Below, piece after piece: positions 7,985-53,138 of a stretch of 64,000 nt of DNA. The notes under the pieces were generated by a model. It did not search any database, had not been told where the DNA came from, and was given only the letters and a program-made list of their open reading frames with translations. The stretch is from a virus (taxonomy: Duplodnaviria > Caudoviricetes): positions 128,001 to 192,000 of IMG/VR virus record IMGVR_UViG_3300014590_000001. One strand, 5' to 3'. Position numbers and translations under genes: made by a program. Each line of letters opens with the position of its first letter. The first letter of the stretch is position 1.

Positions 7985-8812
7985 TTATTCGTCGTCTTCG
8001 TCTTCGTCTTCATCGTCGAAGTCTTCGTCTTCGTCATCTTCGTCTTCTTCGTCGTCACCAGCGAAGTGCGCTTCCAGAGCTTCGCGCAGTTCGTCTTCGT
8101 CTTTCTTTTTAGCCTGAGCTTTGGTGAACACGCCTTCTTCGATTGCTAAAGCGCGAAGTTCTTTTTCGTCGAGGTCGTCGAGATCTTGTTCATCTTCGTC
8201 CTCGTCGTCTTCATCTTCGTCTTCATCATCTTCATCGTCGCCGTCTTCGTCGTCTTCGTCGTCCGAGTCTTCATCATCCTCGTCTTCGTCGTCTTCGTCT
8301 TCGTCGTCACCATCTTCGTCGTCTTCGTCTTCGTCATCCTCTTCATCATCGGAATCGTCGTCAGAATCGTCGTCAGAATCGTCGTCGCCGTCTTCATCTT
8401 CGTCGTCTTCGTCTTCTTCATCTTCGTCATCAGAAGAGACACCCATCGCTTCGTTCAGCAGTTCGCGAAGTTCGTCTTCGTCCATGCTGCCAGCTTTTTT
8501 CTTGGTAGCAGCTTTAGACTTCACTGCGGCTTCACGCAGAGTTTCTTCGTCTGCGTCAGAAATATCGATCGCTTCTTCTTCTTCAATCGCTTCCACGATT
8601 TGAGCAGCGGTCACTTTCGCTTTTTTCTTACCAGCTTTAGCTTTCGGTTCAGCCTTAGCAGCTTTACCGCCTTTACCTTTAGCGGCAACAGTCAGACCAG
8701 CTTCAGCCAGCAGTTCGGCAACTTCGGAATCAGCAGATGCTTCAACCAGAATGCCAGCCATCTTAGCCAGAACTTCCATCGCTACGTTAGAGGTCTTTTT
8801 AGCTTTTGCCAT
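7985..8812 (-). CDS. highly acidic protein with two helix-loop-helix (HeH-like) repeats
   Basis: long D/E tract; repeats DADEETLREAA...MDEDELRELL and DLDEKELRALA...DEDELREAL; AAGGA RBS. Confidence 0.8.
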   Translation of the reverse strand: MAKAKKTSNVAMEVLAKMAGILVEASADSEVAELLAEAGLTVAAKGKGGKAAKAEPKAKAGKKKAKVTAAQIVEAIEEEEAIDISDADEETLREAAVKSKAATKKKAGSMDEDELRELLNEAMGVSSDDEDEEDEDDEDEDGDDDSDDDSDDDSDDEEDDEDEDDEDGDDEDEDDEDEDDEDSDDEDDEDGDDEDDEDEDEDDEDEDEQDLDDLDEKELRALAIEEGVFTKAQAKKKDEDELREALEAHFAGDDEEDEDDEDEDFDDEDEDEDDE

Positions 8813-9026
8813 GATACTTTATTTCCTTTAGAAGAATGTTTAGTATTGAAACATCGTTATGTTCAATTACTATTTACAGTATTTAAGAGAAAGTGTTTTC
8901 AAGCAACGCCACCGAAATTTATCAGCGGCGTTTCGACATTAACTGTTTACAGTTTTCTGTCTGACATAATCCGTTTACAGATTACGCCTCACGATATTAC
9001 TTTACAGATTTGCCTACGAAACTGGA

Positions 9027-9608
9027 TTAGAAGTTTTCGTCAGACTTTTTCTTTTTCTTGCCAGCTTTATCAGCTTTGCCGCCTTTGGAAGATTTCTCTT
9101 CCTTGCCGCCAGATTTTTTCTTTTCGGTCGCAACCGGAGTGCCGTACTTACGTGCAGCAACCGCCTCGTCAACAACCGCACGAACGTCGTAACCAGCAAC
9201 AGTGGTGTTAACGCGAGTGACTTCGCCAGTTTGAATATCGGTGCCGATAATCACGTCGTCTTTAACTTTTACAGTTTGACCACGGATGATCTGGACAGGC
9301 ATGTATGCGTCAACCAGCAGTTGACCCATTTCACCAGCTTCACCGATGAAGGTGATGATTTGCGATTTGGTGAAAGTGGTTACAACTTGTTTGGAAGAAC
9401 CAGCGCCTTTCTTGTGGCGAATCGTAACGCTACCATCGGAAGTAACGTCGATGATGAAACCTGAAACTTCGTGAGCGCCACGAGCAGAGATTTCAATATC
9501 GTGCGCCAGATCGCTTTGCTTGGATTTAACGCGAGCAATAGCGCCAGCTTTCTTTGCAATACGGTCGATACGTTTTGGAGCCAGTGCGGTGCTTTTAGAT
9601 TTGGACAT
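9027..9608 (-). CDS. hypothetical beta-rich protein with Lys-rich tail
   Basis: 193 aa, GGAG RBS. Confidence 0.8.
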   Translation of the reverse strand: MSKSKSTALAPKRIDRIAKKAGAIARVKSKQSDLAHDIEISARGAHEVSGFIIDVTSDGSVTIRHKKGAGSSKQVVTTFTKSQIITFIGEAGEMGQLLVDAYMPVQIIRGQTVKVKDDVIIGTDIQTGEVTRVNTTVAGYDVRAVVDEAVAARKYGTPVATEKKKSGGKEEKSSKGGKADKAGKKKKKSDENF

Positions 9609-9627
9609 TTCGAAACTCCAGTTTCAC

Positions 9628-10392
9628 TTACTTCATTTGTTCAAGGATAAATTCGACAACGGCATTTGCAGCGGCATCGAACAGTTCGGTATTAGACACT
9701 AAATCAATTAGTGACTTCGAATATTCTGTCACATTTTCATGGAACGTCTTCCATGAGACAGGAGATTCTTGCATATCGGAAATGACGTAGCGGATTGCCT
9801 CCCATTCCCAACAGTGCCTCAATTCTGACTGAACGTAAGCCCGAATGTTTTCACGTACTACCTGTTTTTCCTTTACAGATAATTCGATAAACATATTAGG
9901 CCAGCGCCCATCGAAACGATTTCGGAAAGTTTTATCAAATGCTTTCGCAGCATGAGACTGACGATTGGTGCTTAGTGTCGTGGCAGCGAGATAAACAACG
10001 ACAGTATGCAAACGAGATAGCGCTTTAATCAGCACATCCTCAACCAATCTTTCCGCAGGTGTTTCCGGAACATCCAGAATCTGTCTCTGAAGTTCAGCAA
10101 TCTGCCTATTAAGATTATCGACTTCAGAAGAATAAGTTTGAGAAATCGACTCAATCTTATGCAGAGCTTCGGCAGCATTCTTATTTGCTTGCTCTACCAC
10201 ATTACTATTTTTCAGTTGGAGGTCAGAAAAGTTTCTCTCCAAAACAGCCAACTGTATTTGCAACCTACCAACTTCCAACAAACGCTCATTATGCAGACGT
10301 TCGGTAATAGACAGTTGAGTTGTTTTTGTTTCGATTTCCTGTCTCGAAACGAACAATGCAGCATTAAGAGCATCGAGTTGTGAATCAGACAT
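9628..10392 (-). CDS. hypothetical coiled-coil protein
   Basis: GAGG RBS before ATG 10392 (MSDSQL). Confidence 0.75.
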   Translation of the reverse strand: MSDSQLDALNAALFVSRQEIETKTTQLSITERLHNERLLEVGRLQIQLAVLERNFSDLQLKNSNVVEQANKNAAEALHKIESISQTYSSEVDNLNRQIAELQRQILDVPETPAERLVEDVLIKALSRLHTVVVYLAATTLSTNRQSHAAKAFDKTFRNRFDGRWPNMFIELSVKEKQVVRENIRAYVQSELRHCWEWEAIRYVISDMQESPVSWKTFHENVTEYSKSLIDLVSNTELFDAAANAVVEFILEQMK

Positions 10393-10444
10393 TATCAATC
10401 CTCGTAAGTGGCGCAGGATATTCCCCACGCCACTTATTTACAGA

Positions 10445-13378
10445 TTACTCTTCGGATTCGTCTTCGTCTTCGTCAGCAACAATACCGCTAACATCAGACA
10501 GCAGAAGAGTCAGGTCGCCGCCGTTCGCAAACGCAGCGTCAGCAACGCCAGAGGACAGCAGAATCAGCGGCAGGTTAGTTGTGCCGAGAGACATTGCAGC
10601 TTCCATCAGATCGTCAGCTTCGTTTACACGCTGAACATCGTTCGTGGTGTAAGACGCAACTTCGATTTCGTCGCTTGCCATATCGCTAACAGATTTCACA
10701 ACGTTACGCAGCGCTTCGTCGGAAACCAGAGAACCAGCATTCAGCGTGAAACCAACGTAAACTTTCATATCGGTTTCGCCAATGTGGGAAACAACACGAT
10801 TGTATGCGCTAGTAACCAGAGCAGAAACTTTCTTCTTATCCAGACCCCAAATGCAAGGCAGTGCGATGTTCAGCACAACCGTATTCAGCACAGTGCTTTC
10901 AGTGTCCACTGTTACCGGACGAACAGAAACGTGTGCGTTGTACAGTGACGCCATCGGAACATGATCACCGATCAGTTCAGACAGATATTCTTCTGACAGA
11001 TCATCTTCGTCAATTTCGTCTTCGTCGTCGATGAAGTCACCAAGAACCAGACCGTGTTCGTAAGGATCTTGACCTGCTTCCAGACGGCCTTCATACAGCA
11101 GCGCGTCCAGTTGGCTACGCATAGTGTTGCCGAGTTTTTCGGAATAAGTTTCAACGTTGAAAGTTGAACGCTCAGACATGAACGGCAGCGCAGCAGAGCC
11201 GGACAGCAGATCGGTCGCTACAGTCAGAGGCAGATACATCGCACCTTCAACTTCGTCAGTCAGGTTGAACGGTACGCGGTAGTTAACACCGGATTGATCC
11301 GCGAGTTCTTCAGAAATATTTTCGAAGGTATCGCGATCAGTCAGGGTGAAGTTAACCAGCAGCGTTTGTTCTTGACGAACGCGCAGGAAAGTTCCGAGAT
11401 CGTTAGATGAACTTTCTTCAACGAAATTTTCGTCGTTTTGTTCTTCGGCTTCTTCCGCGTCGATATCATCGTTTTCCGCGTCGGCTTCTTCTTCCGCGTC
11501 GATATCCGCGTTTTCCGCGTCGGCTTCTTCGTCGTCTTCCAGATCTTCGGCTTCGTCTTCGTCATCAGCGACGTAGCCGTTTTCCAGACGATACTGTTCG
11601 AATTGTTTCAGCACGGCAACTTTGCCGTCGTTTTCGATTTCTTCACCAGCAGCTTCAAGCGCCGCTACACGTTGATCGTGAGACAGTTCGCCACCTTCAA
11701 ACTGGAACAGTTCGGTGTAGTCAACCGGATTAACTTCGTAACCAACGAATGACGGGAAGTGCGCCGCAACGGTTTCGTTTTCACCGAGTTCACGAACCAG
11801 TTGTTCGAATTCTTCAACGTCAGCGAATTCAGTTTCAGCCAGAGCATTCAGGATCAGTTCCAGAATGTCAGTTGCAGACTGCTTTTTGAAAGTAGTCAGG
11901 CCGAAACTTGCAGAGCGAGCGATAACGCGAACGGCATCGCGATTCAGTTCACCTTCGCCAACTTCAGCGGCAACCAGAGAAGCAAATTCAGAAACCGGAT
12001 CGAAGGTAGCGTCTTCGTCTTCGCCATCTTCGTCGTCCTGATCTTCATCGTCCTGATCTTCGTCGTCCTGATCTTCATCAGCGTCTTCAGAATCGTCTTC
12101 GTCTTCCGAATCTTCTTCAGAATCTTCTTCAGGAACGTCGTCGTTTACTTCTTCCGACTCAGCGTGGATGTAAGTCGCCAGCGCTTCGTTGCCGCCGAGT
12201 TTTTCGTTTGCTGCGATCAGGAACGCAAACAGTTCGTTGTATTCAAACGCACCAACCAGATCCAGCAGTTTGGTTGTCAGAGTTTCTTCGGTGTCAGAGG
12301 TAAACACTTTACCGCCAGCAACGAACACCAGTTTTTTCAGGCCAGCGCGATCCAGATTTGCATTCAGAAGAATACCAGCCAGAGTTTCGGCAGCGTCGAA
12401 TTCTTCTTCGTCGTCACCTTCTTCGGTTTCTTCTTCGCTTTCTTCCGCGTCGTCTTCAGTTTCCAGATCGTTTTCTTCTTCGCTTTCCGCAGCAGCTTCG
12501 CCAGCACCTTCGAGGAAGTCAGCACGTTCGCTTTGATACGCCAGTGCGATCTCTTCATCAGGCATTGCGCCGAGGTCATAGCCGATTGCGATCAGCGCTT
12601 CCGCTTTCTCTTCGATAGAAACAGAAGACTGATTTTCACGTTTGAAAACATCAAGAGCATTGCCCACTTTATTCCCCTTAATAGGATTGATCAGGAAGTT
12701 CACGCGAGATACTTCCGAGCGAACTACAAAACTTAATGCAGCACCTTCCAGCAGAACGACTTCAGCTTTGGTTTCGTTCCAGTTGATTACAGGCGCGTTG
12801 ATTTGGTCAACGTTAGCTTTCAGAGCAGGAACGAAATTCGCTTCGTTACGCTCGATTGCTTCCAGTTGGTCACGCAGAGAATTCACAACACCGTGTGAAC
12901 TACTTTCTGAAGTTACTGCGATTGCGTGTACGCCGAAACGAGAGGCATATGACGCTAACGTAGTATTATCATTTGCAGCTTTCTCTGCGACTTTAAACAA
13001 CGCTTCCGAAATAAGTTTCTGGAGGCGCTCTACGTTACCATTTACAGTATAACGCAGAATCATTGCCGCACTATCTTTCAGTTTCACGCGCTCGTCGATG
13101 GACGCGGCAGCGCCACCACGCGTACCAAGCACTTCCAGAACAGCGGCATCGTTGCCAGCGATAGCCAGAAGGTCAGTCAGACGGTTAAGCGCTTTGCCCT
13201 GCGCAACGGTTTGGGTAACGTTGCCGTTATTTTCGGCGCGGTAAATCTGATTACCATTTACAGTAGGGCACAGCAAAACAACAACAGTGCTTTTGGTTCC
13301 AGAAGAACCCTGATTCAGATTCTGCGCAGTCAGATTTGCATTGTGCGCGGCAGTTCCGAATTGTTGAGTTGAAGTCAT
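10445..13378 (-). CDS. giant acidic multidomain protein
   Basis: 977 aa with several D/E tracts; GGAG RBS. Confidence 0.85.
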   Translation of the reverse strand: MTSTQQFGTAAHNANLTAQNLNQGSSGTKSTVVVLLCPTVNGNQIYRAENNGNVTQTVAQGKALNRLTDLLAIAGNDAAVLEVLGTRGGAAASIDERVKLKDSAAMILRYTVNGNVERLQKLISEALFKVAEKAANDNTTLASYASRFGVHAIAVTSESSSHGVVNSLRDQLEAIERNEANFVPALKANVDQINAPVINWNETKAEVVLLEGAALSFVVRSEVSRVNFLINPIKGNKVGNALDVFKRENQSSVSIEEKAEALIAIGYDLGAMPDEEIALAYQSERADFLEGAGEAAAESEEENDLETEDDAEESEEETEEGDDEEEFDAAETLAGILLNANLDRAGLKKLVFVAGGKVFTSDTEETLTTKLLDLVGAFEYNELFAFLIAANEKLGGNEALATYIHAESEEVNDDVPEEDSEEDSEDEDDSEDADEDQDDEDQDDEDQDDEDGEDEDATFDPVSEFASLVAAEVGEGELNRDAVRVIARSASFGLTTFKKQSATDILELILNALAETEFADVEEFEQLVRELGENETVAAHFPSFVGYEVNPVDYTELFQFEGGELSHDQRVAALEAAGEEIENDGKVAVLKQFEQYRLENGYVADDEDEAEDLEDDEEADAENADIDAEEEADAENDDIDAEEAEEQNDENFVEESSSNDLGTFLRVRQEQTLLVNFTLTDRDTFENISEELADQSGVNYRVPFNLTDEVEGAMYLPLTVATDLLSGSAALPFMSERSTFNVETYSEKLGNTMRSQLDALLYEGRLEAGQDPYEHGLVLGDFIDDEDEIDEDDLSEEYLSELIGDHVPMASLYNAHVSVRPVTVDTESTVLNTVVLNIALPCIWGLDKKKVSALVTSAYNRVVSHIGETDMKVYVGFTLNAGSLVSDEALRNVVKSVSDMASDEIEVASYTTNDVQRVNEADDLMEAAMSLGTTNLPLILLSSGVADAAFANGGDLTLLLSDVSGIVADEDEDESEE

Positions 13379-16496: not shown

Positions 16497-18128
16497 TTAG
16501 CCTTTAGCCAGCAGAGCGCGGAGTTTTTTCTCGCTCATGTTTTCGGCGGCGCGAACTTTCGCAAGACCTTTCTGAACTACGATATCGCGCAGTTCGTCTT
16601 CGTCCAGATCTTCGTAATCGTCGTCTTCGCCTTCTTCAAAATCTTCGTCTTCTTCGTTGCTGTCTTCGCCGTCTTCGTCAGAAACAACTGGTGAGTATTC
16701 TGACAGGCCGGAAATATCTTCGTTGCTAAACGCTACAACTTCTTTACCGCCTTCTTCAATCACCAGCAGATCCGCGTCTTCATCCATGCCGACATAAATC
16801 AGAGTGTCTTCGCCGTCTGTCAGTTTCAGACCAGCAACCAGCGCAGATTCAGGAACGCCCCACAGTTCGGACAGCATGGACAGGTTTTCTTCTGTCACTT
16901 CTGAATCACGTCCGGCTAACTGCTTTTTAGTCAGCGAAACATATTCGTATTCTTCGCCGTCTTCGTCTTCACCGTCTTCAGAATCGTCATCGGAATCTTC
17001 GCCGTCTTCTGAATCGTCTTCATCCTCTTCGTCCTCTTCGGACTCTTCTTCTTCCTCTTCCTCTTCTTCCTCGTCTTCATCTTCATCTTCATCTTCAGCA
17101 ACCAATTCATAGTGGCTCAAAGATCCGGTGGAGATAGTGCGGAATTTTTCGGTTTCGGTGTTGAACAGTACAGCTTTGTTGTTATCGTCAACGCTTGCGC
17201 CGCAGAAAACAAACTGACCATCTTCACCTTCGCGAACCAGCAGAGTGCCAGCAGTCATATCGCTCGCATCAACGCCGAGGTGTTCAGAGATTGCAGCCGC
17301 CAGTTTTTTACCGACAGTTTTACCAACACGCGATTTGATTTTCTTCGCCAGTTCCGGAGAAATTTCATAACCGCCGTTGATTTCTTCAGGCTCAGGCTGC
17401 GCCAGTGCGTATTTGAAATTCATCGTTACGCGAATGTCGCCACCAGTGCGATCAAACTCAGTCGAGTAACCAACTTCGAATGCGTTTTGAATCGCCGCGT
17501 TGTTTTCGTCAAACTTCGCGAGAGAAGAATCTTTCGCGACTGCCATCAGACGTTCAGTAATAACTTTCGCCAACGGTTCGCCAACTTCAGACAGTGACAC
17601 GGTGCCTTTCGGTTTGATACCAAAGTCGCTCATTTCAACGCCAGCGTTTTTAGCGCCACGACGTTTAACAGTGCGACCAGTTGTTTCTTCTACATCAACA
17701 TCCGCAGCTTTGCGGCGAACTTTAGAAGGTTTCTCTTCAACGTCTTCAACGTCTTCAGCAGGTTTGCGACCGGAAGTTTTGCGGCCAGTAGTTTTAGCTG
17801 GCTTGTCTTCAGCAGGTTTGCGACCGGAAGTTTTCTTGCCAGTTGCTTTAGCAGGTTTTTCTAAGAAAGCGTCAGTGCCAACTTTTTTCTGCATCGCTTT
17901 GTCGGAAAATTCAACGTAGCCGTTTCCGGTGTCGTTCAGTTCACGCAGAGACACGTTAGGGATTTCGTAAAACATCGCGCCCTTTTTCGCAACCTGCTTG
18001 CTGTTCACACGAACAGAGCGGTCTGCAACTTTGTAGCCAGTAGCTACAGCAGCGGTGATTTTAGTTTTGGTGCCGTCCAGCAGAACAATTGATTTACCGA
18101 TCAGAGCTTTGTTAGTTGCGATTGCCAT
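16497..18128 (-). CDS. acidic/basic modular protein with internal duplication and C-terminal HeH-like motif
   Basis: 543 aa; AGGAG RBS; KTSGRKPAED repeats; D/E tracts. Confidence 0.85.
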   Translation of the reverse strand: MAIATNKALIGKSIVLLDGTKTKITAAVATGYKVADRSVRVNSKQVAKKGAMFYEIPNVSLRELNDTGNGYVEFSDKAMQKKVGTDAFLEKPAKATGKKTSGRKPAEDKPAKTTGRKTSGRKPAEDVEDVEEKPSKVRRKAADVDVEETTGRTVKRRGAKNAGVEMSDFGIKPKGTVSLSEVGEPLAKVITERLMAVAKDSSLAKFDENNAAIQNAFEVGYSTEFDRTGGDIRVTMNFKYALAQPEPEEINGGYEISPELAKKIKSRVGKTVGKKLAAAISEHLGVDASDMTAGTLLVREGEDGQFVFCGASVDDNNKAVLFNTETEKFRTISTGSLSHYELVAEDEDEDEDEEEEEEEEEESEEDEEDEDDSEDGEDSDDDSEDGEDEDGEEYEYVSLTKKQLAGRDSEVTEENLSMLSELWGVPESALVAGLKLTDGEDTLIYVGMDEDADLLVIEEGGKEVVAFSNEDISGLSEYSPVVSDEDGEDSNEEDEDFEEGEDDDYEDLDEDELRDIVVQKGLAKVRAAENMSEKKLRALLAKG

Positions 18129-20471: not shown

Positions 20472-21248
20472 TTACGCTTGCTCAGATTTGAAAGCATGTA
20501 CAGCAACCATCATCGAGTCGATGTTAGAAAATTCTGCATCGGAAACTTTGATTTTGTTTGCGATTGCGAAATCTTGAAGTTGCTCAAGATTCCAACCCTG
20601 CATTGCTTTCGCAGCCTTGCGAACGTTTTCTGGACGACCATCATATTCATGGTCAATGTCACGATCATCAACTACTGTTTGATCTTCGTCTTCGTCTTCG
20701 TCCTCACCCCCAAAACCATGTTCAATCAGTTTTTCCGTTGCAGGACTAATCTGGTAGTCATCACTACCTCTGGTGCGACCGATACGAGCACGGACAACTT
20801 TCGTTTTCGTATCAGGCAGACGAATGAACAGACAGTCAGGAGAATCCCAATCAACGAACACCCACGAACCGTAAACGTCAGCAATATCCAAACCGGATAA
20901 TGTGTCGTTGATCAGATCATGCAATCGCGATACGCGAGTGTTTTTCAAAGTGCGTGACATAATCAAATTGATTTCACGCATACTAACTTTGATGATGTTT
21001 TGATCGGAGCCTTCGAGATTATTCTCTTTGGCTATCCGCCATTTCTCTAAAACCGAAACAACAAAACTATTCAAACGGTCTGCATCTGTAATGCGCGCAG
21101 AAATCACTGCTTCAGAATTCTTTGCGCGAACAGAAGCGGGAGCGCCTTTTGCTTTAGCGAGTTTCTTTGCACCAGCTTTAGTTGCATCCGCGTTCTTTTT
21201 AGCACGACCAGCTTCGATTTGTTTTGCGATCACTTTAGGATTAGGCAT
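20472..21248 (-). CDS. hypothetical protein, paralog of 22358..23179, C-terminal HeH-like motif
   Basis: AAGGA RBS before ATG 21248 (MPNPKV). Confidence 0.8.
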   Translation of the reverse strand: MPNPKVIAKQIEAGRAKKNADATKAGAKKLAKAKGAPASVRAKNSEAVISARITDADRLNSFVVSVLEKWRIAKENNLEGSDQNIIKVSMREINLIMSRTLKNTRVSRLHDLINDTLSGLDIADVYGSWVFVDWDSPDCLFIRLPDTKTKVVRARIGRTRGSDDYQISPATEKLIEHGFGGEDEDEDEDQTVVDDRDIDHEYDGRPENVRKAAKAMQGWNLEQLQDFAIANKIKVSDAEFSNIDSMMVAVHAFKSEQA

Positions 21249-21340
21249 TTTGTAGTTCCTTTGGGATTTACGTTGAAAGCATGTAAGGTGAAAACCCCGT
21301 AAATCCTTACACGCTTGTTGAGGCAAGTGCCTCGGTCTTT

Positions 21341-22357: not shown

Positions 22358-23179
22358 TTATTTTGATTGAGCGATCAGGAATTCTAACAGAGCAGCATCT
22401 GGATTGTTTCTAGCTTTAAGCGTTATGCCCATATTGTCAGCAGCATCGCGAACGCTTTCAAAATCCAGCAAATCCAAAAGTTCATTAACTGCTTGTTGCG
22501 TAGTTCCTTCTAGCTCGCCAATATTCAGAGTTGTTGCGAGTTCGTTCAACACTTCAAGATCTTGAGAGAGTAAAACGAACTTCAATTGTTGGTAAGTCCC
22601 CGAAGTTTGTCGCCGTTCTTCAGGAGTAAGGCTATCAACTTCAGCAATACGTTTGCGTGTATTGCGAAGTGAGTCAGGAGCTTTCTGTACATCAGCAGGA
22701 GAAAATTCTTCCTGCAACTTATTTTCAGTTTTAACAGGATTGGCTTTAGGTTTTGCCTCTTTAACTGGTTTCTCTTTCTTCGGCTTTTCTTCCGGTTCAG
22801 CGAAATCAGTTTCACCCAATTCAACCAACTTGCCTGTATAACCATTTTTAGAATAGACAATACCAACTACGCTTGTTGCAGAATGCGGCAATTCAATCAA
22901 AGTAAAATCAGGTGCATCATGTTTCACCAGCGCCCAATCTCCGTGAATAGCGCGGAAATTAAAATCGCCAATAACTTTTTCTACCAGTTGCGGAAGTTTA
23001 CGACGAGGCGTGTTTTCCAAAACTTTGTGAAGATCCGCAACAGAAAACTTAATGTAGTTGTCGTTAAACAACTCGCCCTTTTCGTACAGTCCACGGCGAA
23101 CAGCTTCGTTAGCTTCGAAGATACTTACCAGTGCCGCACGTACACCATCAAAATCACTCTGACTTGTTACAGCAGACAT
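22358..23179 (-). CDS. hypothetical protein, paralog of 20472..21248, HeH-like repeats
   Basis: 273 aa, GAGG RBS. Confidence 0.8.
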   Translation of the reverse strand: MSAVTSQSDFDGVRAALVSIFEANEAVRRGLYEKGELFNDNYIKFSVADLHKVLENTPRRKLPQLVEKVIGDFNFRAIHGDWALVKHDAPDFTLIELPHSATSVVGIVYSKNGYTGKLVELGETDFAEPEEKPKKEKPVKEAKPKANPVKTENKLQEEFSPADVQKAPDSLRNTRKRIAEVDSLTPEERRQTSGTYQQLKFVLLSQDLEVLNELATTLNIGELEGTTQQAVNELLDLLDFESVRDAADNMGITLKARNNPDAALLEFLIAQSK

Positions 23180-33072: not shown

Positions 33073-34977
33073 TTAGTTTTTAGCGACAAGACGATCCATC
33101 GCAGCAATAAAGATTTCAGCAAGACGCGGCGCACCAAGTTTATTTAAACTCTTGTCGCTGTATCCGCGTGACGCCAATTCTGCGATCAGTTCCTGACGCG
33201 ACAGCACCGGAATAACTTCACGATAGTTATCTGCGGTGACGTTGCGCGACTCAGGCGCGTTTTCCATTTCCGCTTCAGCGATGAATGCTTTCAGTTCGCT
33301 GGCGCTCATGGTACGAGCTTTTGTCGGCGGCATACCTAACGCAATCGCACGTTCGAAAGCAGCAGACGGCGCGGATTCGGTTTTAGTTTCTGCTACAGGT
33401 TCAACAGCAGGTTCTTCAGGCTCAACGCTGAAGAATGGAATGCCGTGTTTCGCAGCCAGTGCATTAACGCGAGAAACAAACCTGTACATTGCGTCAGCGT
33501 TTTCTTGTTCCAGACAATGTTCAAGCAGCCACTCTTCAGCTTCTTGCGCGTCGAATGAACTTGTGTCTTGTGCTGGCACAATGCTTTCGATCAACGGACG
33601 GAAGAATTGCAGACGTTTGAAATTGGTATCTTCTAACCACTCCTCGAACGCGGCCTGAAGTTTATCGCCGTAGTCAAAGTAATCTTCATTTACGTCATTG
33701 AAGAAAAGTTCCAGCAATTCGTAATGACGCTTTTCGCCAATCGTAATGAGCGATACATCTTTGCTCAGAACGTTTTCTTGCACGGCGCGGAACAACGCGG
33801 AACGCAGAGCAGAAGTTGAAGCAAGTGCGTATTTCTTTTCTTCGAGTTTGAATTCTTCGTCGTCTTCGCTCATTGCTTTCAGTGCTGCATAAAGTTCTTC
33901 GGCAGTTGCAGGAACGATTAGAGATTTACGTTTCGGAGAAGCAGGAGTTTCATCTTCATCCTCTTCATCTTCTTCGTCGAAGTCATCTTCTTCTTCGTCT
34001 TCCTCCTCTTCCTCTTCATCGTCTTCCAGTTCTTCATCATCCTTGTAGGCAGACGCGAAACGATCAATCAGTTCTTTTGCGTTGTCATCCAACTGACCGG
34101 AAACTTTTTCTTTGCCGTCGTGTACTGCAACCCAAAACGTTGCGATGATTTGCAGAGTTTGAATGAATGACAGATCGCTGAAGTGCATCCAATCGGCGTA
34201 CTGCGCAGAAGTGATCAGGTCTTTATCGTGCAGACGCTTCAGAACTTCCTGCGGGCCGATTGCACAAATTGAACGCATCAGCGCGTAGCTGCGATTTGAT
34301 GAATCGTCAATGTCGAGCATCTGAACTAACACGCGAAACGCTTCTTCGTTCCAGTGATCGAGTTCATCGCCAATATCGCTCAGGATAATATTGTCGTCCT
34401 GACGAACCAGCTTGCTCATATCCAAACGAGAGGCAAGTTGCTGCCAGCGATCCGATTCAGAATATTTATCGTAGGCGTAACGCTCACCGAAATAATTCAG
34501 CAGCACGTTAGCAGTTGGGAACATGTGCTCGTAATTGTTCAGGTTTGCATGAATGCGGCGCACCATCATCATACGCGGATCTGGATCAGATTGACGAATC
34601 ATGCGAGTTCCAATACCACACGCTTTCGCAATCTTTTCGATATTCGCATCAGACTCAAACGCCAACAGATCGTTAACGTCCATGATACGGCGCAGATTGA
34701 GGAATTCATCAATCACGTTGGACAGCGTTACGATATTGAATGCTTCGAATTCGGACGGCAGAGTTTCAGTGTCCGGATAAACGAACGCTAAAAACATTGC
34801 GGCTTCAGATCCGCGCAGTTGCTTTTGGATAAACGCCAGAACAGATTGCTCAGGCGTTGCGTTTTCAGACAGAGACTCTTCCGATTCAATCAGAGAGCGA
34901 AACAGAACAGCGATCTGGCGAATTGCTTTTACGCGAGTCTCGCCAGTTTTCGGCAGTTGGATATTAAAGTCTAACAT
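33073..34977 (-). CDS. acidic helical protein with multiple HeH-like motifs
   Basis: 634 aa, D/E tract, C-term LSRQELIAELASRG. Confidence 0.8.
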   Translation of the reverse strand: MLDFNIQLPKTGETRVKAIRQIAVLFRSLIESEESLSENATPEQSVLAFIQKQLRGSEAAMFLAFVYPDTETLPSEFEAFNIVTLSNVIDEFLNLRRIMDVNDLLAFESDANIEKIAKACGIGTRMIRQSDPDPRMMMVRRIHANLNNYEHMFPTANVLLNYFGERYAYDKYSESDRWQQLASRLDMSKLVRQDDNIILSDIGDELDHWNEEAFRVLVQMLDIDDSSNRSYALMRSICAIGPQEVLKRLHDKDLITSAQYADWMHFSDLSFIQTLQIIATFWVAVHDGKEKVSGQLDDNAKELIDRFASAYKDDEELEDDEEEEEEDEEEDDFDEEDEEDEDETPASPKRKSLIVPATAEELYAALKAMSEDDEEFKLEEKKYALASTSALRSALFRAVQENVLSKDVSLITIGEKRHYELLELFFNDVNEDYFDYGDKLQAAFEEWLEDTNFKRLQFFRPLIESIVPAQDTSSFDAQEAEEWLLEHCLEQENADAMYRFVSRVNALAAKHGIPFFSVEPEEPAVEPVAETKTESAPSAAFERAIALGMPPTKARTMSASELKAFIAEAEMENAPESRNVTADNYREVIPVLSRQELIAELASRGYSDKSLNKLGAPRLAEIFIAAMDRLVAKN

Positions 34978-35586
34978 TTATTCTGTTTCCTCTTCTTCAG
35001 TTTGAACTTGAGCACCAAACAGGAATTCAATAATAGATTCGTGTTCGGTTTCCGCGTTTGAAAGTTCGCCGGAGCTGCGCAGGAATGTGTCGTATTCTTC
35101 TGCGAAGTCCATGCCGTTCAGAGCTTCGATCAACCACTCACGATCTTCATGTTGTGGTTCGTTGCCGTTAATCGTGTACAGGTCACGCAGTTGTTCCAGC
35201 GTCAGCGCATCCAGTACACGGTCTTTGTGAATCTGCGGATCAACGTTGGTACTGAATTCCGCACTGATAATGTTTTGCGTTACCAGAGATTCACAATCAT
35301 TGAAGTTGAACCACAGTTCCGACTTGTGCGTAGGAATGTTGTTTGGCTTCAGGAAATGATCGTTGAAGTAATCGCGCAATGTGTCGATGTGCTTACCGCT
35401 TTCTGCGAGGCGTTGCGACAGAGCGAAAACAACTTTGGTACGCTCGACAGTGTGGGCGTTTTCAATTCCCATTGCAGCCATCAGCGCCGCCAGATCAGAA
35501 TCAGAGAACAGCGCCAGCGCGTACCACCACTCACCTTCATCGAGAAGACGAGCAATTACCAGATCGGATGTGATTTGTTGAGTCAT
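34978..35586 (-). CDS. acidic protein with HeH-like repeats
   Basis: 202 aa; LDALTLEQLRDLY...DREWLIEAL. Confidence 0.75.
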   Translation of the reverse strand: MTQQITSDLVIARLLDEGEWWYALALFSDSDLAALMAAMGIENAHTVERTKVVFALSQRLAESGKHIDTLRDYFNDHFLKPNNIPTHKSELWFNFNDCESLVTQNIISAEFSTNVDPQIHKDRVLDALTLEQLRDLYTINGNEPQHEDREWLIEALNGMDFAEEYDTFLRSSGELSNAETEHESIIEFLFGAQVQTEEEETE

Positions 35587-36422: not shown

Positions 36423-36521
36423 TCACTTGTTATGAAGTTTTTCGCATTCTTTATGCAGACGCTGCAAGCGCCAGTTATTGAAACGGAAACGTAACTTACG
36501 GATAAATTGTTTAAAGGACAT
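36423..36521 (-). CDS. small basic peptide (32 aa)
   Basis: GAGG RBS; MSFKQFIRKLRFRFNNWRL...; fills the gap between flanking genes. Confidence 0.5.
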   Translation of the reverse strand: MSFKQFIRKLRFRFNNWRLQRLHKECEKLHNK

Positions 36522-37473
36522 TCTTTTGCCTCTTGAGTAAATCAACAACGGCAAGGTTTTTTGCTTTCGATTCGCACATGATATCGAATTGATCAAAAGA
36601 CAGTGCCCATTCGTTTACGAGTTGATTGTGGAAGTAATCTGCATGAGCACGTAGTTTCATTTTCGAAACAGAAAGTTTATTCTGATCCGGAAATTCATCT
36701 GACGGAACAAACTCAGGACGCGATACTGAATAGTGCATTGTGGGACGAACGCCACGCCAGCTATCTATTACCTTGTTTACAGTTTTGCTCTTAGGTTTGA
36801 TGTACTCGTTTGTCATAACCCAATGGTGATGAATATCCAGCACCACAGGAAGCAAATCAGATAGCGTTAGGCAATCGTCTACATGACTCGTCAATTCGTC
36901 ATTCTCAACAGTCAACATGCGACGACATTCAGGCGACAGACGCAGAAAGTTTTTTCTGAATCCTTGTGCGCCAAGTTTACCACTCAGGTGAATGTTGATC
37001 TTGAAGTCCTGAAACTTTTTACCATAGCCCATCATTGTTGCAATGCGCGTATGGTATTCAAGATCGCGAATTGAGTTTTCCACTACGTCCGGTCTATCAC
37101 TCGCAAGCACAGTAAATTGGCCAGGATGAAACGAAAGTCTGACACGATGCAATCGGGCAAACTCACCGAGCGCACGTAACTGATTTTCGACTTCAGGCAA
37201 AACATACTTGCGACTGACCACGCTAAAATCTTTATGCGTGAACAGCGGCAAGAGTTCGCTTGTGATTCGTACCATTCGTTTTGTCTCTGAACGGATCGCC
37301 ATCATTTTGATCATGCTTATCGTAGCGCGAACATTATGAGTTCCAATCTCAATCAGTTTTTCAATTTGCTCGTCGTGAGTTAAAAGTGACAAACGAGAAG
37401 CGGTGACGGTACGACACGGAAAAGGTTGTTTGCCATCCCTGCCCATATATTTACAAGCGAACCCTACGCGCAT
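36511..37473 (-). CDS. uvsE: UV damage endonuclease (UvsE/UVDE)
   Basis: RVGFAC, RLSFHPGQFTVLAS, INIH, LTVENDE, VLDIHHHW, HYS, AHADY, DIMCESKAK motifs. Confidence 0.93.
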   Translation of the reverse strand: MRVGFACKYMGRDGKQPFPCRTVTASRLSLLTHDEQIEKLIEIGTHNVRATISMIKMMAIRSETKRMVRITSELLPLFTHKDFSVVSRKYVLPEVENQLRALGEFARLHRVRLSFHPGQFTVLASDRPDVVENSIRDLEYHTRIATMMGYGKKFQDFKINIHLSGKLGAQGFRKNFLRLSPECRRMLTVENDELTSHVDDCLTLSDLLPVVLDIHHHWVMTNEYIKPKSKTVNKVIDSWRGVRPTMHYSVSRPEFVPSDEFPDQNKLSVSKMKLRAHADYFHNQLVNEWALSFDQFDIMCESKAKNLAVVDLLKRQKNVL

Positions 37474-37481: not shown

Positions 37482-37928
37482 TCAATGTTCTATGATGATA
37501 CCGAAATCACTTGCTGCAAAACTATCAGAGAGAATTGCAGAGAAGATACGTGCCTCGTAAAAATTGAATGACGCATCCGGACAAGTGTTTTCGTAAACGG
37601 TATCGGAAACTTTTCTGAAGTTTCGATCAACAAGAAACTTGTGAACGAATTCTTCCAACTTGTTTGGATCGAGTACCCACTCAAGCGAATATTTCATGAG
37701 AAGGTTTTCGATGCCTTTGCCAATCTCCGCATAATAGTAATCGGCAGACTGACCAGATTCTTGCTGGCGCAAATCAATGTACAGAGCTTGCGCCTCCATA
37801 AGCAAAGTGAATGCCTCAGCCAAATCAACTTTGACATTCTTCTCCATCTGCAAATGAAGTTCGCGCAGAACAATCGGTGTGATGGTGTCACAGCCAATCG
37901 TTTTCAGTTTAAAGTGATTCGGGATCAT
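37482..37928 (-). CDS. hypothetical protein
   Basis: 148 aa. Confidence 0.7.
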   Translation of the reverse strand: MIPNHFKLKTIGCDTITPIVLRELHLQMEKNVKVDLAEAFTLLMEAQALYIDLRQQESGQSADYYYAEIGKGIENLLMKYSLEWVLDPNKLEEFVHKFLVDRNFRKVSDTVYENTCPDASFNFYEARIFSAILSDSFAASDFGIIIEH

Positions 37929-38764
37929 TCTTCATCCTCTTCAGCTTCTTCCAAATCTTCCAGATACGAAACCAGTAGACGACGCAGACGGTTTTCGGAG
38001 CAGCGCTCTACGGGCACAGACGAATGAACTTCGAAAACTTTAATCCAGTGCAGCAACTGATCGCGATTCATATTACGCGCTTCGTCGGCTGTAGGAGTGC
38101 AAGTATCTTCTCCGTTCTTAACGTCTTCGGTTTCAATTCCGGCTCGCTTCTCTACGTCGAGAACGTAGGCCATCAAAAATTCGCGACGTTTCTTGTTGGA
38201 ATATTCACGCAGCATAAGCGGAGTTTGAACTTTATATTTCTTCAGCCAGTAGCGAACATGATCATCTTCCATCGTTGCAACTTGCTTGCTGGAAATCATC
38301 GGAATCTTTCCGTCACTATCTTCTGTTTCTTCGATAGCCTGAAGAGAAACCCAAACCATATTTTCTGGCCCCGCGCGTTTGTGTACACGCGTTGCTTTGC
38401 CCCAACCAACAGCAACGAAACGCTCACGCAGTTCATCGTACACCGATTGAGGATCGATTGCGTCAAAGTGACACAGTTCCAAATGCAGCAGGTTCGGAAT
38501 CAGATCGAAAGTTTGTTGTGCATATTCAGATTCTAACCACTCGCAATATTCGGTGTAGTTCTTGACGTAATCGCCGCCACTGCCTTTGTGCTTGCCGTAG
38601 TACGGTGAAGGAATTTCGCCGCCAGCAATTTCAAGCAGACAACTGTTAGCGCGTTTGATTGCTTTCGCGATAAAGTCATCCTGCTTTTGTTTCTGTTCCG
38701 TTTTAAGTTCCTCAAACTGCGTTGGGGAAACTGCGTCACGCTGATCGTGTACTGGATGCCACAT
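37925..38764 (-). CDS. hypothetical protein with two C-terminal HeH-like repeats
   Basis: 279 aa. Confidence 0.75.
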   Translation of the reverse strand: MWHPVHDQRDAVSPTQFEELKTEQKQKQDDFIAKAIKRANSCLLEIAGGEIPSPYYGKHKGSGGDYVKNYTEYCEWLESEYAQQTFDLIPNLLHLELCHFDAIDPQSVYDELRERFVAVGWGKATRVHKRAGPENMVWVSLQAIEETEDSDGKIPMISSKQVATMEDDHVRYWLKKYKVQTPLMLREYSNKKRREFLMAYVLDVEKRAGIETEDVKNGEDTCTPTADEARNMNRDQLLHWIKVFEVHSSVPVERCSENRLRRLLVSYLEDLEEAEEDEE

Positions 38765-40517: not shown

Positions 40518-41345
40518 TTATGCCTCGTTGCGATTCTGGATAGTGATATTACGGATAAGACGTTTTAACTGTTCTTCGCTCAGGTGCGTAAGTTGCACGT
40601 CACGGAAAGGAAGAAGTTTCGACAGCACATAAACCATTTCGGCTTTAGGAATCGAATCAAGTTCCACGTCGCGACCACATGCGATAGAAACGTTCAGAGA
40701 AGAAACGACAGTGCGATCAATGAATGTGAAATTCAGAGGTTCGCACAGCGGCTGTCTAACTGAATCGAGATACTCAACAAGTTCTTCAGTAAGCATCATA
40801 CGATTCATGCGCGGAAATTCTTCTTTGCGATCCGGAATAACATCAATCAGCAAATCGCGCATAACGCCAACATCAACCATTTCAATATCAATCGCGTCAA
40901 CAGAAATCAAACGCACGATAACATCAGTCGGAAGAGAAATAGTTTTCTTCGGTTGCTTCGGCATATCATCTTTATTTGTGCAAAGATAAAACTTCAACCA
41001 GTTACGCGCATGTTGAACGCCGGAGAAAACTTGTGCTGTAAGTTTGTTGGTTGCGCGTAAAACAGTTTCATCGTCAACACGATCAACCATATCCATTCTT
41101 TCAATGGAATTTTCGTGTGCATCTAAAAGACCAACACGAACAGGTAAAGTTGTGTTCATGATAACGGTGTGTTCAGTTTGTCCGTTATCTGCAATCAGGC
41201 GAGCAAAACCAGTTCCGAAATAAATGATCAGTTCGTCATTGGTCAGGCCGTGTTTTTCGGCTACGGTTCCGACTGCATCCGTCAACTCGTCGAACGCTTC
41301 TTTGAGGAAAGGAGGCAGTTCAGCAGGGATATCTAGCGGTTTCAT
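40518..41345 (-). CDS. hypothetical protein with HeH-like repeats
   Basis: 275 aa, first gene after P9. Confidence 0.75.
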   Translation of the reverse strand: MKPLDIPAELPPFLKEAFDELTDAVGTVAEKHGLTNDELIIYFGTGFARLIADNGQTEHTVIMNTTLPVRVGLLDAHENSIERMDMVDRVDDETVLRATNKLTAQVFSGVQHARNWLKFYLCTNKDDMPKQPKKTISLPTDVIVRLISVDAIDIEMVDVGVMRDLLIDVIPDRKEEFPRMNRMMLTEELVEYLDSVRQPLCEPLNFTFIDRTVVSSLNVSIACGRDVELDSIPKAEMVYVLSKLLPFRDVQLTHLSEEQLKRLIRNITIQNRNEA

Positions 41346-48567: not shown

Positions 48568-48577
48568 AACGTTTACC

Positions 48578-48931: not shown

Positions 48932-48942
48932 ACTACACCTCT

Positions 48943-49308: not shown

Positions 49309-49314
49309 AATCCC

Positions 49315-49686: not shown

Positions 49687-50230
49687 AGACAGAATCTTTC
49701 TTCCGATTGTAATCGGCGGTCACGGTTACAACCATGTTGTTAGAAAGATGAACGCGACCTTTCCAGAATCCAGAATACTGTTCGGAAAAGTTATAGGCAC
49801 GTAGGCACGTAATGTTTGCGTCACGGTAAATATCAATCGTACTGACGACAGGACAAACATCAGCAGCAACGCGATCTGGATTTTTAGCATCGTCAATTTT
49901 GAATGACGTAAGCAAGTAGATAATCAGAATAACCAGATACGCCCACGCGACGTTTAAGTTTTTCTTGCCAGCACGTTTCTCACGCTTGAACATGTAGACC
50001 GGCATAAGCAGACACCAGAAAACATTTGGCGGGTTATCGACACCGTTTTTCATTAGTGTTTTCTGATCGCTATGAATGATCGCCATATTCATAATAACAG
50101 TGGCAACTGCGCCCCACACGAAATACTGATCAGGAACAGCGAAGTCCATAATCGAATACACGATGAAGATTAAAAAGAACGCTGCCAGATTCAGGCCATC
50201 GAAAGAACGTAAATCAAAAAACTTTTTCAC
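49646..50230 (-). CDS. multi-pass membrane protein
   Basis: 3-4 hydrophobic helices; GAGG RBS, GTG start. Confidence 0.7.
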   Translation of the reverse strand: MKKFFDLRSFDGLNLAAFFLIFIVYSIMDFAVPDQYFVWGAVATVIMNMAIIHSDQKTLMKNGVDNPPNVFWCLLMPVYMFKREKRAGKKNLNVAWAYLVILIIYLLTSFKIDDAKNPDRVAADVCPVVSTIDIYRDANITCLRAYNFSEQYSGFWKGRVHLSNNMVVTVTADYNRKKDSVYVQTQGMADDVGY

Positions 50231-50240
50231 AGGATTTTCC

Positions 50241-50336
50241 TCAGTTGAGAGAGATAACTATTAATAATGCAAGTGCAAGTAAAGTCCAAAACTTGCGCGT
50301 TGACATGCGGTATTTGATTTCACCGTACTGAACCAC
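50241..50336 (-). CDS. small membrane peptide (31 aa)
   Basis: GGAGG RBS, GTG start; ...RKFWTLLALALLIVISLN. Confidence 0.5.
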   Translation of the reverse strand: MVQYGEIKYRMSTRKFWTLLALALLIVISLN

Positions 50337-50337
50337 G

Positions 50338-50592
50338 TTAACGCCTCCGAGGGAATGGAAACGCTATTGCTACAGAGAATCCAAAATACATTGTGTACAA
50401 ACTTATCACCGGAATTTTAATATACGGCGGCAAGTGCCAAACTTTCACGTCCACATAAATGAACAAGAAATACAGAGCGAGGCCAGCAAAGAAACTAATT
50501 CGTGCCTTTGCTTTGGTGCCGAATAAGATCCGATACAAAGGAGAAGAAATCTTCTTTAGCGAAGACGATACTTTCTGAATCAAGATTGACAT
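50338..50592 (-). CDS. small two-TM membrane protein
   Basis: 84 aa, GGAG RBS. Confidence 0.6.
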   Translation of the reverse strand: MSILIQKVSSSLKKISSPLYRILFGTKAKARISFFAGLALYFLFIYVDVKVWHLPPYIKIPVISLYTMYFGFSVAIAFPFPRRR

Positions 50593-51256
50593 TGTGCTTC
50601 TCCAGCATGTGTTGAATCGCCTTTACCTCATGGCGTAAAAGTTTTGGCAACGCATCTTCGACAGGGCCACCGCCAAAAAGAATGTACGTGGCTTTATCGA
50701 TCAACTGCGCATCAGTTTGCGGTTCGCAACAGAAACACTGTTCACCCTTCACATACAGGCAAAGTCGCACACGTTGATTTGCGCCCGTTTGCTGAATGTG
50801 AAGTTCTGTAGAATAGTTTACAGTTTTGTCGCGAATGATGATTCGATCCGGAAACTCCGAAACAGATACGCCGCTCGCAGTATTGTTTTTCAGTGACTGC
50901 GCATAGACAACAGCAGTTTCAAAAAGCGGTGTGCGTTTGAAACTTTGTGCAGCGAGATATTTATAGATCGCGTCCATCGCCTGTTCCATTGTTTCGGCGT
51001 GAACCATATCGCTGAAAGTTCCCTGCGTACAAATCACATTCACGTAATGCAGGTCACTACGCATGATTGCGATTTCGCGCAAGTCGGCTGCGTCCTCATT
51101 CCACACAGCAGGACGCAACACCAATTTAAACTGCAACTGCGTTACAACTTTCGGCACAGCTACGCGCAGAATATCTTGCGTCTGCGCGTCCGGTTTGCTG
51201 CCTAAGAATTTAACGTACAGTTCATCAAACAAAGTTTCTTTTTTCTGCTTAGGCAT
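50495..51256 (-). CDS. hypothetical protein
   Basis: 253 aa. Confidence 0.7.
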   Translation of the reverse strand: MPKQKKETLFDELYVKFLGSKPDAQTQDILRVAVPKVVTQLQFKLVLRPAVWNEDAADLREIAIMRSDLHYVNVICTQGTFSDMVHAETMEQAMDAIYKYLAAQSFKRTPLFETAVVYAQSLKNNTASGVSVSEFPDRIIIRDKTVNYSTELHIQQTGANQRVRLCLYVKGEQCFCCEPQTDAQLIDKATYILFGGGPVEDALPKLLRHEVKAIQHMLEKHNVNLDSESIVFAKEDFFSFVSDLIRHQSKGTN

Positions 51257-51257
51257 T

Positions 51258-51488
51258 TTAGTCTCTCGTCATGATGGAATTTTTCAGACGCTTCAGCGCA
51301 TATTCGTTTTCGCGTTGCAGCATTTCGTCGGCGTCTTTCTGCGCGTCCAGAATATCGTTGACCATTTCTTCTTTCGAAGGTTCATCGTCATCATCCTGTA
51401 GATCGTCATACAGGCGATATTCATCCGCAACATCATGCAGAGTTTGGAGATCCATTGCCTCCAGTTCTTCGCGAGTTCTCTTACTCAT
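51258..51488 (-). CDS. small Rho-N/HeH-like protein
   Basis: TREELEAMDLQTLHDVADEYRL...SKEEMVNDILDAQ. Confidence 0.65.
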   Translation of the reverse strand: MSKRTREELEAMDLQTLHDVADEYRLYDDLQDDDDEPSKEEMVNDILDAQKDADEMLQRENEYALKRLKNSIMTRD

Positions 51489-51765
51489 TTGGTTTACCTT
51501 TACCGATGTATCCGATTTTCATTGTGAACAACAGGAACGTAATCACCAGCAGATTAGCGTTTAAGTTTTTCTGCGGTGACGGCATTTGCGTAAGTCCGAT
51601 ATGCAGCAGATGATGAATGCGATAGTCATTGTGCTTTCCGGAGCGCGTGAAATACCAGAGTTCCCAACCGATGCCTAATTCCAAAACGGCGCGACCAAAG
51701 AACCACGTTCCTTTAATTGATCGCTTGCCGTCTTTATGAATGTGCTTGCGCAGAAACTTTTTCAT
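51481..51765 (-). CDS. hypothetical protein
   Basis: 94 aa. Confidence 0.6.
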   Translation of the reverse strand: MKKFLRKHIHKDGKRSIKGTWFFGRAVLELGIGWELWYFTRSGKHNDYRIHHLLHIGLTQMPSPQKNLNANLLVITFLLFTMKIGYIGKGKPNE

Positions 51766-52181
51766 TTCTTTTGATGCCTAAGTCTGAAAACTTCCAGTAC
51801 GTAGCCGCCTGTCAGTCGCGTATCGAAACGACACTGCCACTGCGAATAAATATCCGTAAGGTGAGCATTTGCAAACTGCAATAGTTCGTGTGTTCCGGTA
51901 AAGCGCAACGAAACACGATAGCCGTGAAGTCTGCCGAAAAGGTTATCCACAAATTCTAAAAACTCTTTGCAGGAAACCATAGGGCAATCTTCAAGAACGG
52001 CAACAATCAAATACGAATCCGTTTTGACCGTCACGTTCGTTGTGCCGTCGCCAAATGAAACAGGCACAGCATTAAAAACGCGCTCAGTATTTCGAGCGCA
52101 ATCACGTACCATCCCCGAAATCAGGTTGCTTGCGTAATTATTCTGCATTGCGGTACGCCTCGATATTATAGAAAGGTTCAT
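51762..52181 (-). CDS. hypothetical protein (start may be 52148)
   Basis: ORF coupled to neighbours. Confidence 0.65.
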   Translation of the reverse strand: MNLSIISRRTAMQNNYASNLISGMVRDCARNTERVFNAVPVSFGDGTTNVTVKTDSYLIVAVLEDCPMVSCKEFLEFVDNLFGRLHGYRVSLRFTGTHELLQFANAHLTDIYSQWQCRFDTRLTGGYVLEVFRLRHQKK

Positions 52182-52656
52182 CGCTGATCTGACCTTCTTT
52201 CAACGGGCTGTAATACGTGCCGAGGCCAAACGGATCTTTGAAGTAGCAAACAAATCCTAAATCGAGGAGGAAGTTTTGGAAGAAATCTTCCAACGGATTT
52301 TCAACTGACAGAATAACTTTTCGTTCCTGACACTCTGCCATCAATGCGTACAGCAACGCAGTGAATAAATTTTTGCGGCGTAATGATTCAGGTAACTCGA
52401 TATTCGAAATGCAAAGATAGGAGTGACCGAAACGACCGTAACGCATCGCACCATAACGCATATAGCAACTGATTTTGCTGATCGGCTTGATGTATTCCGA
52501 TTCTGATTTGATAAACTTACGTTGCTCGACTTTTGCCAACTTGTCGAAAACTTGATTGACGAATGAATTAATGATCGGTTCAAATTCTTCCAGCGCAGCT
52601 TTAACGCGATTGATACGAGCAGCAGGAACGAGAGCCAGAATTTTATCAGTGTTCAT
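52138..52656 (-). CDS. GNAT-like acetyltransferase
   Basis: ISNIELPESLRRKNLFTALL (motif A-like) and FLLDLGF (motif B-like). Confidence 0.55.
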   Translation of the reverse strand: MNTDKILALVPAARINRVKAALEEFEPIINSFVNQVFDKLAKVEQRKFIKSESEYIKPISKISCYMRYGAMRYGRFGHSYLCISNIELPESLRRKNLFTALLYALMAECQERKVILSVENPLEDFFQNFLLDLGFVCYFKDPFGLGTYYSPLKEGQISDEPFYNIEAYRNAE

Positions 52657-53138
52657 TAGCAGAATCCTTTTTCAAATGTGTGAGCTTTTTCCCAACCAAA
52701 GAACATGCGAACAATTTCAACTTTATCTTCGCATGATTTATCTTTGCGGTTCAACCAAACGCGGAAGCAGTCGCGCAGTTCTTGCGTAGTTCCTTCTTCC
52801 GGTTCACCAATGCCTACCATCACTTCGAAAAGTTCGTCATGCGAGGCTTCGTCAAGCAGACGATCAACCACTTCTTGTCGGCGGCGATCTTTATCTTCTA
52901 AACAATTACGTTCGCCACGCAACACAGCTTGCACGTTGCTGGCAAAACGGCTTGATGCCAACATGCCTTGCTCAACCTCTTCAACAGACATGCAGTAATC
53001 AACACGCAGACGTTTACCTTCATAGTTGAAATAAACGTAGGGGTTGCCGTGACGTTCAACCATATCAATTTTGGTAACGGTGTGAACATCAGGCAGACGC
53101 GAAATGATCGCCTGAACGATTTCATTCATGGAGTACAT
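52656..53138 (-). CDS. hypothetical protein with SAP-like C-terminal motif
   Basis: ASHDELFEVMVGIGEPEEGTTQELRDCF. Confidence 0.7.
   Translation of the reverse strand: MYSMNEIVQAIISRLPDVHTVTKIDMVERHGNPYVYFNYEGKRLRVDYCMSVEEVEQGMLASSRFASNVQAVLRGERNCLEDKDRRRQEVVDRLLDEASHDELFEVMVGIGEPEEGTTQELRDCFRVWLNRKDKSCEDKVEIVRMFFGWEKAHTFEKGFC

Follow-up and report, generated by a model that had tools for sequence, protein, structure and literature searches.

A stretch of 64,000 nucleotides from a phage genome (IMG/VR record IMGVR_UViG_3300014590_000001), here called the window, appears to encode a set of small domains of the helix-extension-helix (HeH) class, to which the SAP, LEM and Rho N-terminal domains and the C-terminus of T4 endonuclease VII belong. 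The reading that we favour, with some reservation, is that these mini-domains are heterogeneous, are mostly C-terminal on otherwise unrelated proteins, and probably serve as independent adaptors and not as one common address system.

The window covers bases 128,001-192,000 of a phage genome of 256,657 bp that has direct terminal repeats, and its real genes are all located on the minus strand. Positions are those of the window unless stated otherwise, and proteins are named by the first position of their gene. The closest described relatives are the Dickeya phages JA13, JA11 and JA29 (Salmondvirus), with a patchy nucleotide identity of about 80%, followed by the Alexandravirus phages AD1 and Erwinia pEa_SNUABM_2 and pEa_SNUABM_30. 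The first-pass annotation of the window had listed about 15 proteins between positions 7985 and 53138 as carriers of one recurring two-helix pattern, and every listed peptide segment was found in a minus-strand open reading frame (ORF) at the position assigned to it. No more than roughly half of the list stands, and the number of carriers was set too high: three proteins are firm and a fourth is probable, three others have specific but weak support, three remain candidates and six were left unsupported.

The main module type, termed A2, is about 40 amino acids long. Its approximate consensus sequence is D-L-x-D-L-[DS]-E-D-E-L-R, followed by a short linker containing G-L and K or R, and then M-x-x-x-x-L-R-x-L-L. 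Three copies are located in proteins 16497 and 7985:

16500..16619, minus strand: reference A2 module at the C-terminus (residues 504-543) of the 543-amino-acid protein encoded by 16497..18128, right behind an acidic tract.
8444..8572, minus strand: A2 module 1 of protein 7985 (residues 81-123 of 275 amino acids; gene 7985..8812), with a Lys-rich stretch on one side and a long poly-D/E tract on the other.
8063..8191, minus strand: A2 module 2 of protein 7985 (residues 208-250), with poly-D/E on both sides.

We searched with an iterative hidden Markov model (HMM) whose only seed was the last 46 residues of the 16497 family (five orthologues), using reversed-sequence decoys, which scored at most 3.3 bits in round 1. 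Both modules of 7985 were retrieved in that round, module 1 with 20.3 bits (E = 1.3e-5) and module 2 with 15.1 bits (E = 5.5e-4), together with the pEa_SNUABM_2 orthologue of 20472 (E = 1e-3), an Alexandravirus family of 420-610-amino-acid proteins and an ORF of 70 amino acids. Over six rounds, the rest of the proteins of the 257-kb genome all scored 6.6 bits or less. When the A2 alignment was compared profile to profile (hhalign) with those of the orthologues of all 100 window proteins, 16497 reached 98%, copies 1 and 2 of 7985 reached 97.6% and 97.7%, and the tail of 20472 reached 66%; all other listed candidates were at background. As judged from sequence, the link between 7985 and 16497 is backed independently by PHROG, where the C-terminal end of phrog_33433 matches residues 80-121 of 7985 (E = 6.4e-5).

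Module 1 of 7985 was found to be kept in JA13 and in one IMG/VR relative, and the 7985-family relative P0001 has three module copies. IMG/VR scans returned one relative for 16497. Among 5.8 billion proteins searched, this phage clade and one DUF669 protein of another phage, P0040 (PF05037), were the only sources of the A2 module. P0040 is the weakest carrier and the only A2 carrier with a precomputed Pfam domain; Pfam made no HeH-class call on the other A2 carriers. The 126-amino-acid P0032, a fragment of a 7985-family protein, was deposited as a partial sequence under a metagenome-assembled genome of Raoultibacter sp., where phage DNA was probably assigned to the bacterial bin. A 341-amino-acid ORF on the plus strand (8186-9211) is an artefact, an antisense reading of poly-Asp/Glu codon repeats, which outranks the true minus-strand gene 7985..8812 in a longest-ORF filter.

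Structure models support the HeH assignment for two modules, that of 16497 and the listed segment of protein 33073, and for these two the SAP/LEM/Rho-N/T4 endonuclease VII-like call made from the pattern was borne out by structural search. The 16497 module was modelled with AlphaFold2 (47 residues, six-sequence alignment) with a mean predicted local distance difference test (pLDDT) of 86.6; helices were predicted at residues 14-24 and 37-46, with a one-turn helix (29-33) in the linker. For the C-terminus of 33073, where the alignment consisted of two sequences only, the AlphaFold2 model had a pLDDT of 79.5 and contained two units of the 16497-like layout, with a low-confidence linker between them:

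33253..33381, minus strand: A2-type module (33073a) absent from the original list, residues approximately 533-575 of the 634-amino-acid protein encoded by 33073..34977, directly upstream of the listed segment.
33076..33231, minus strand: divergent HeH module (33073b), the listed segment, residues 583-634 at the C-terminus of the same protein, assigned on the basis of structure.

The models were compared exhaustively with 48,161 representative PDB chains. For both, the best superpositions were with the Rho N-terminal domain, many SAP domains, the LEM domain of emerin and the C-terminus of T4 endonuclease VII. The top SAP neighbours of the 16497 model were those of E1B-AP5, Hcc-1, SLX4, SF3B2, PIAS1, FAN1, Ku70, MKL1 and THO1, with emerin LEM, the T4 endonuclease VII C-terminus and the SAP-like domains of MANF and CDNF as further top neighbours. 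In both models two amphipathic helices, with an extended linker between them, form a predicted autonomous unit of approximately 35-50 residues, on which solved members of the class superpose better than other folds.

The unlisted module 33073a was connected to the A2 type by hhalign scores of 19-24 against the 16497 and 7985 modules (maximum of length-matched controls 16.1), and an HMM seeded from it recovered helix 2 of 16497 with 20 bits (E = 2e-5; decoy maximum 4.3). Its predicted layout is helix, short helix, helix. The neighbouring 33073b has no sequence relation to A2 and was below detection in every sequence test; its fold was found by structure only. Since 33073b failed all these tests and yet has the fold, failing them is weak evidence against any other segment.

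The fourth A2 carrier is probable:

20484..20606, minus strand: probable degenerate module, residues 241-281 of a 284-amino-acid ORF, at the C-terminus of the protein encoded by 20472..21326.

At the corresponding position, the orthologue in pEa_SNUABM_2 bears a clear A2-type module. The tail of 20472 itself scored 66-73% with hhalign, a comparison that is partly circular, and the only genome-wide match to Pfam Ish1 (PF10281), a HeH-class family, falls on this tail (12.8 bits, E = 0.056, sub-threshold). To judge from the orthologues, which begin there, the true start of 20472 is probably the 27th codon, M27 (MPNPKV...). Proteins 20472 and 22358 (20472-21326 and 22358-23179, minus strand) also have a paralogous N-terminal or central domain of approximately 80-95 residues, with about 30% identity, which is common to the AD1 and pEa_SNUABM_2 orthologues as well, and differ in their C-terminal tails.

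Several results weigh against reading these segments as HeH adaptors. Foldseek with the 47-amino-acid module model found nothing in the PDB at E below 3. Across the whole genome in six frames, Pfam SAP (PF02037, gathering score 23.9 bits), HeH (PF12949) and LEM (PF03020) returned nothing at E ≤ 10. Rho_N (PF07498, gathering score 24.9 bits) had no match at threshold, and Ish1 and Fan1_SAP each had a single match that did not reach the gathering score. Sequence-profile searches of the PDB with the A2, 51258, 34978, 52656 and 37925 alignments gave no significant link. The PHROG families of the carriers are all annotated as of unknown function. The A2 modules are also net acidic, with 7-8 K+R against 10-14 D+E. 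The expected likeness to known classes was confirmed in part: the exhaustive structural search is topped by the HeH class, whereas Foldseek against the PDB found nothing significant and the Pfam SAP, LEM, Rho_N and HeH models stayed below threshold. With the 33073 model, Foldseek against viral models found only the JA29 orthologue of 33073. Because no curated Pfam HeH-class model reaches threshold, the A2 type is an uncatalogued, clade-specific sequence family of known fold. The kind of domain is not new, since phage HeH-class domains are already known from T4 endonuclease VII, from DUF669 proteins with SAP or Rho_N, and from an atlas cluster named 'putative HeH/LEM domain'.

The remaining listed candidates were examined with a leave-one-protein-out HMM judged against six decoy proteomes. 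The decoys were beaten by 7985 and 16497, and by a small margin by the short ORF 19821, but by no other protein; 7 of the 11 proteins behaved like shuffled sequence. An HMM built from all 13 listed 'strong' segments, the check originally proposed, recovered its own seeds only, with no other protein above decoys. Significant alignment had been expected of the listed segments; it was obtained for 16497 and both 7985 copies, and most others were at background with hhalign and leave-one-out. Four segments deserve a closer description:

22445..22549, minus strand: possible SAP-like segment, residues 211-245 of the protein encoded by 22358..23179, with a sub-threshold Fan1_SAP match.
51333..51473, minus strand: possible Rho-N-like module, its linker interrupted by an acidic insertion, of the 76-amino-acid protein encoded by 51258..51488; not significant.
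37949..38290, minus strand: possible HeH units in two tandem repeats of about 45 amino acids, in the protein encoded by 37925..38764 (C-terminal extension; residues 159-205 and 226-272).
35092..35220, minus strand: listed segment of 34978, residues 123-165 of the protein encoded by 34978..35586, the best literal fit to the written pattern.

The segment of 22358 is the only genome-wide match to Pfam Fan1_SAP (PF21169; 13.3 bits, E = 0.021, below cut-off) and is kept in JA13. In 51258 both halves of Pfam Rho_N align collinearly around the acidic insertion, with E = 0.011-0.024 per protein (15 bits); genome-wide the two half-matches, the only ones in the genome, have 8 and 6.4 bits (E = 1.2 and 4.1). 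Against the PDB, the profile of the 51258 family, which is conserved as far as Alexandravirus phages, placed Rho helix 1 at E = 1.3 as one of two sequences at E ≤ 10. With hhalign the two copies in 37925 match each other at 72.7% (score 24.7), a true internal duplication. Their nearest language-model atlas clusters are 'HeH/LEM', 'SAP' and 'DUF669/Rho_N', with scores of 0.77-0.79 that are below the reliable range, and a PDB profile search gave no sequence link. The segment of 34978 is conserved in JA13 and JA29 but was at background in every profile test, with no HeH-class match in Pfam or the PDB and no relative in the IMG/VR scan.

Proteins 52656 and 19821, the latter without an orthologue, were indistinguishable from background, apart from the marginal leave-one-out result for 19821; the 52656 segment is conserved in orthologues. 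The 40518 segment was rejected as a full module: a stop codon follows only about 20 residues past the motif, which leaves half a module. The copies described as weaker, in 10445, 21544, 32337, 35596 and 45303, were all at background in profile comparison. Protein 10445 (10445-13378, minus strand; 977 amino acids, phrog_36461, annotated as of unknown function) is 63% identical to JA13_311 and has four separate long acidic tracts. Helical segments behind two of these look HeH-like by eye, and the two putative modules spotted there were rejected because they score at background.

Beyond the few proven copies, then, the list could be a product of chance, a generic helix start picked by eye from some 20,700 residues of helical proteins rich in D, E, L and K. 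We regard this as quite possible, although we lean against it. It would fit the leave-one-out result for 7 of the 11 proteins, the half module in 40518 and the hhalign scores of most candidates, which equal those of non-candidate families. The loose form of the written pattern, which largely corresponds to a generic helix N-cap (capping box) and the hydrophobic-staple start of an amphipathic helix, has 92 occurrences in the window compared to about 66 after shuffling or reversal of the sequence. For a tighter core pattern the window has 12 occurrences, where shuffled sequence gives 2.0 ± 1.3; elsewhere in the genome there are 7, also in unrelated structural proteins, with roughly 5 expected. 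This 6-fold enrichment in the window, compared to only about 1.4-fold elsewhere, speaks against chance but is suggestive only, because the core was defined post hoc, after the list had been seen. Chance also fits poorly with 33073b, which has the fold after failing all sequence tests, and with the single genome-wide Ish1 and Fan1_SAP matches, both of which land on listed segments. Among themselves the candidates scored above random controls with hhalign (40% over the control 95th percentile); we did not count this excess as evidence, since the segments were chosen by eye for one pattern and some pairs are circular.

A strict acidic tract, defined as at least 10 D/E in 12 residues, was found in 6 of the 100 window proteins. 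Fusion to acidic tracts had been described as frequent; by this definition a tract is present in three of the four validated carriers (Fisher p = 5e-4) and in no more than 3 of the 11 proteins listed as 'strong'. In 16497 and 7985 the tracts directly adjoin the module. DNA-binding SAP domains are typically basic, and the net acidic charge of A2 is unusual for them; simple DNA binding is therefore less obvious, and the modules may have a protein partner. The modules could accordingly be protein-protein interaction or dimerisation elements that do not bind nucleic acid, a view that also draws on structural neighbours such as the T4 endonuclease VII C-terminus and the LEM-BAF, MANF/CDNF-BiP and SLX4-MUS81 complexes. 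We think this rather unlikely as an exclusive role, in view of the conserved K/R clusters in the linkers, which could contact phosphates, and the many neighbouring SAP domains that bind DNA.

The modules are conserved across orthologues inside otherwise fast-diverging proteins, and their number and presence vary. The 7985 family has two or three copies depending on the orthologue, and in the 20472 family the module is clear, degenerate or absent. Proteins 37925 (37925-38764) and 40518 (40518-41345), both on the minus strand, have motif-bearing C-terminal extensions of approximately 130-150 residues that are lacking in their JA13 orthologues (144 and 130 amino acids); the 37925 extension is present in five close relatives, and JA29 has the long form of 40518. 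This variation between orthologues is the behaviour of adaptor domains that are mobile and have been accreted. If they work as solved HeH domains do, each of them would tether its carrier to a nucleic acid or protein partner, and the adjoining acidic tract may be a flexible linker, possibly self-masking or DNA-mimicking. Modules of this kind would have been accreted independently and would act independently.

The annotation had gone further and proposed that a single docking signal, common to the modules, brings many early proteins to phage DNA, a scaffold or a compartment, as a 'chromatin' or targeting system. Several unrelated proteins of one gene block do have the same fold class, and the A2 type recurs, with four carriers in the window and others in related phages. 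Nevertheless we consider a common signal very unlikely. At least five module types (A2, 33073b, 37925, 34978 and 51258) are blind to each other in seeded profile searches, where only A2 and 33073a cross-match; since the types do not detect each other, no common recognition surface is conserved. The main type is net acidic, and both early expression and co-localisation are assumptions of the proposal. No tubulin homologue was found in this genome. The phage belongs to the PaBG/Lu11 group. The Dickeya relatives AD1 and JA11/13/29/33 have been placed in this group, of which PaBG is reported to encode a sigma70-type factor, in a paper that mentions neither nucleus nor tubulin anywhere (PMC7412058).

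In a narrower form of the idea, the A2 module and its poly-acidic neighbour would be a clade-specific address that brings a changing set of PaBG-group proteins (16497, 7985, 33073, 20472 and the AD1_301 family) to one target, for example a nucleoid-associated protein or the host nucleoid itself; the acidic tract would be a DNA mimic. This too strikes us as improbable. If it were true, A2 and the acidic tract would make up a phage-encoded, chromatin-like remodelling set, and should the modules share a target they would offer a handle on how DNA or host factors are organised early in infection in a little-studied phage group.

A recognisable domain can be assigned to parts of at least three to four otherwise blank jumbo-phage proteins. 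The A2 alignment defines a HeH-fold sequence family missed by the Pfam SAP, Rho_N, HeH and LEM models, and even closely related phages differ through gain, loss and multiplication of such mini-domains.

Compared to the closest known systems, the modules show both likeness and difference. Unlike the Rho N-terminal domain (PF07498; 1a62 residues 1-48), to which their identity is 10-15%, they are located C-terminally behind acidic tracts, and no OB-fold RNA-binding domain comes after them. They differ from SAP domains (PF02037; 1zrj, 2do1, 2do5, 1v66, 1jjr, 1h1j, 2kw9; FAN1 and SLX4 subdomains) in the short helical turn of the linker, the SAP linker being a few residues shorter. With respect to LEM (PF03020; emerin, 2odc, 7ndy), there is neither a sequence match here to the Pfam model nor a context with a BAF-type partner, and compared to the C-terminal domain of T4 endonuclease VII (1e7d) the nuclease context is lacking. 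DUF669 proteins with a C-terminal SAP or Rho_N domain form an atlas cluster of 442 members (PF05037 80%, SAP 34%, Rho_N 31%). The DUF669 protein P0040 mentioned above (322 amino acids, from a JGI metagenome and an unrelated phage) shares the architecture of globular domain, charged linker and HeH: two to three A2-type modules sit behind the DUF669 domain among alternating acidic and Lys-rich tracts. Pfam calls neither SAP nor Rho_N in P0040 itself, and the carriers in the window are without a DUF669 domain. The P0040 modules suggest that A2 is not limited to the PaBG-group clade.

In the relatives, almost all of the neighbouring genes have the annotation 'hypothetical', and literature searches found no description of the proteins considered here. 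Outside the window, at genome positions 226444-228414 on the plus strand, a 656-amino-acid protein has the N-terminus MEILVSLSA, a start that none of the HeH carriers has. Within the window, the gene of a UvsE-type UV-damage endonuclease (36511-37473, minus strand) was found to be the most conserved nucleotide stretch of the region, with 73-80% across the Dickeya and Erwinia relatives.

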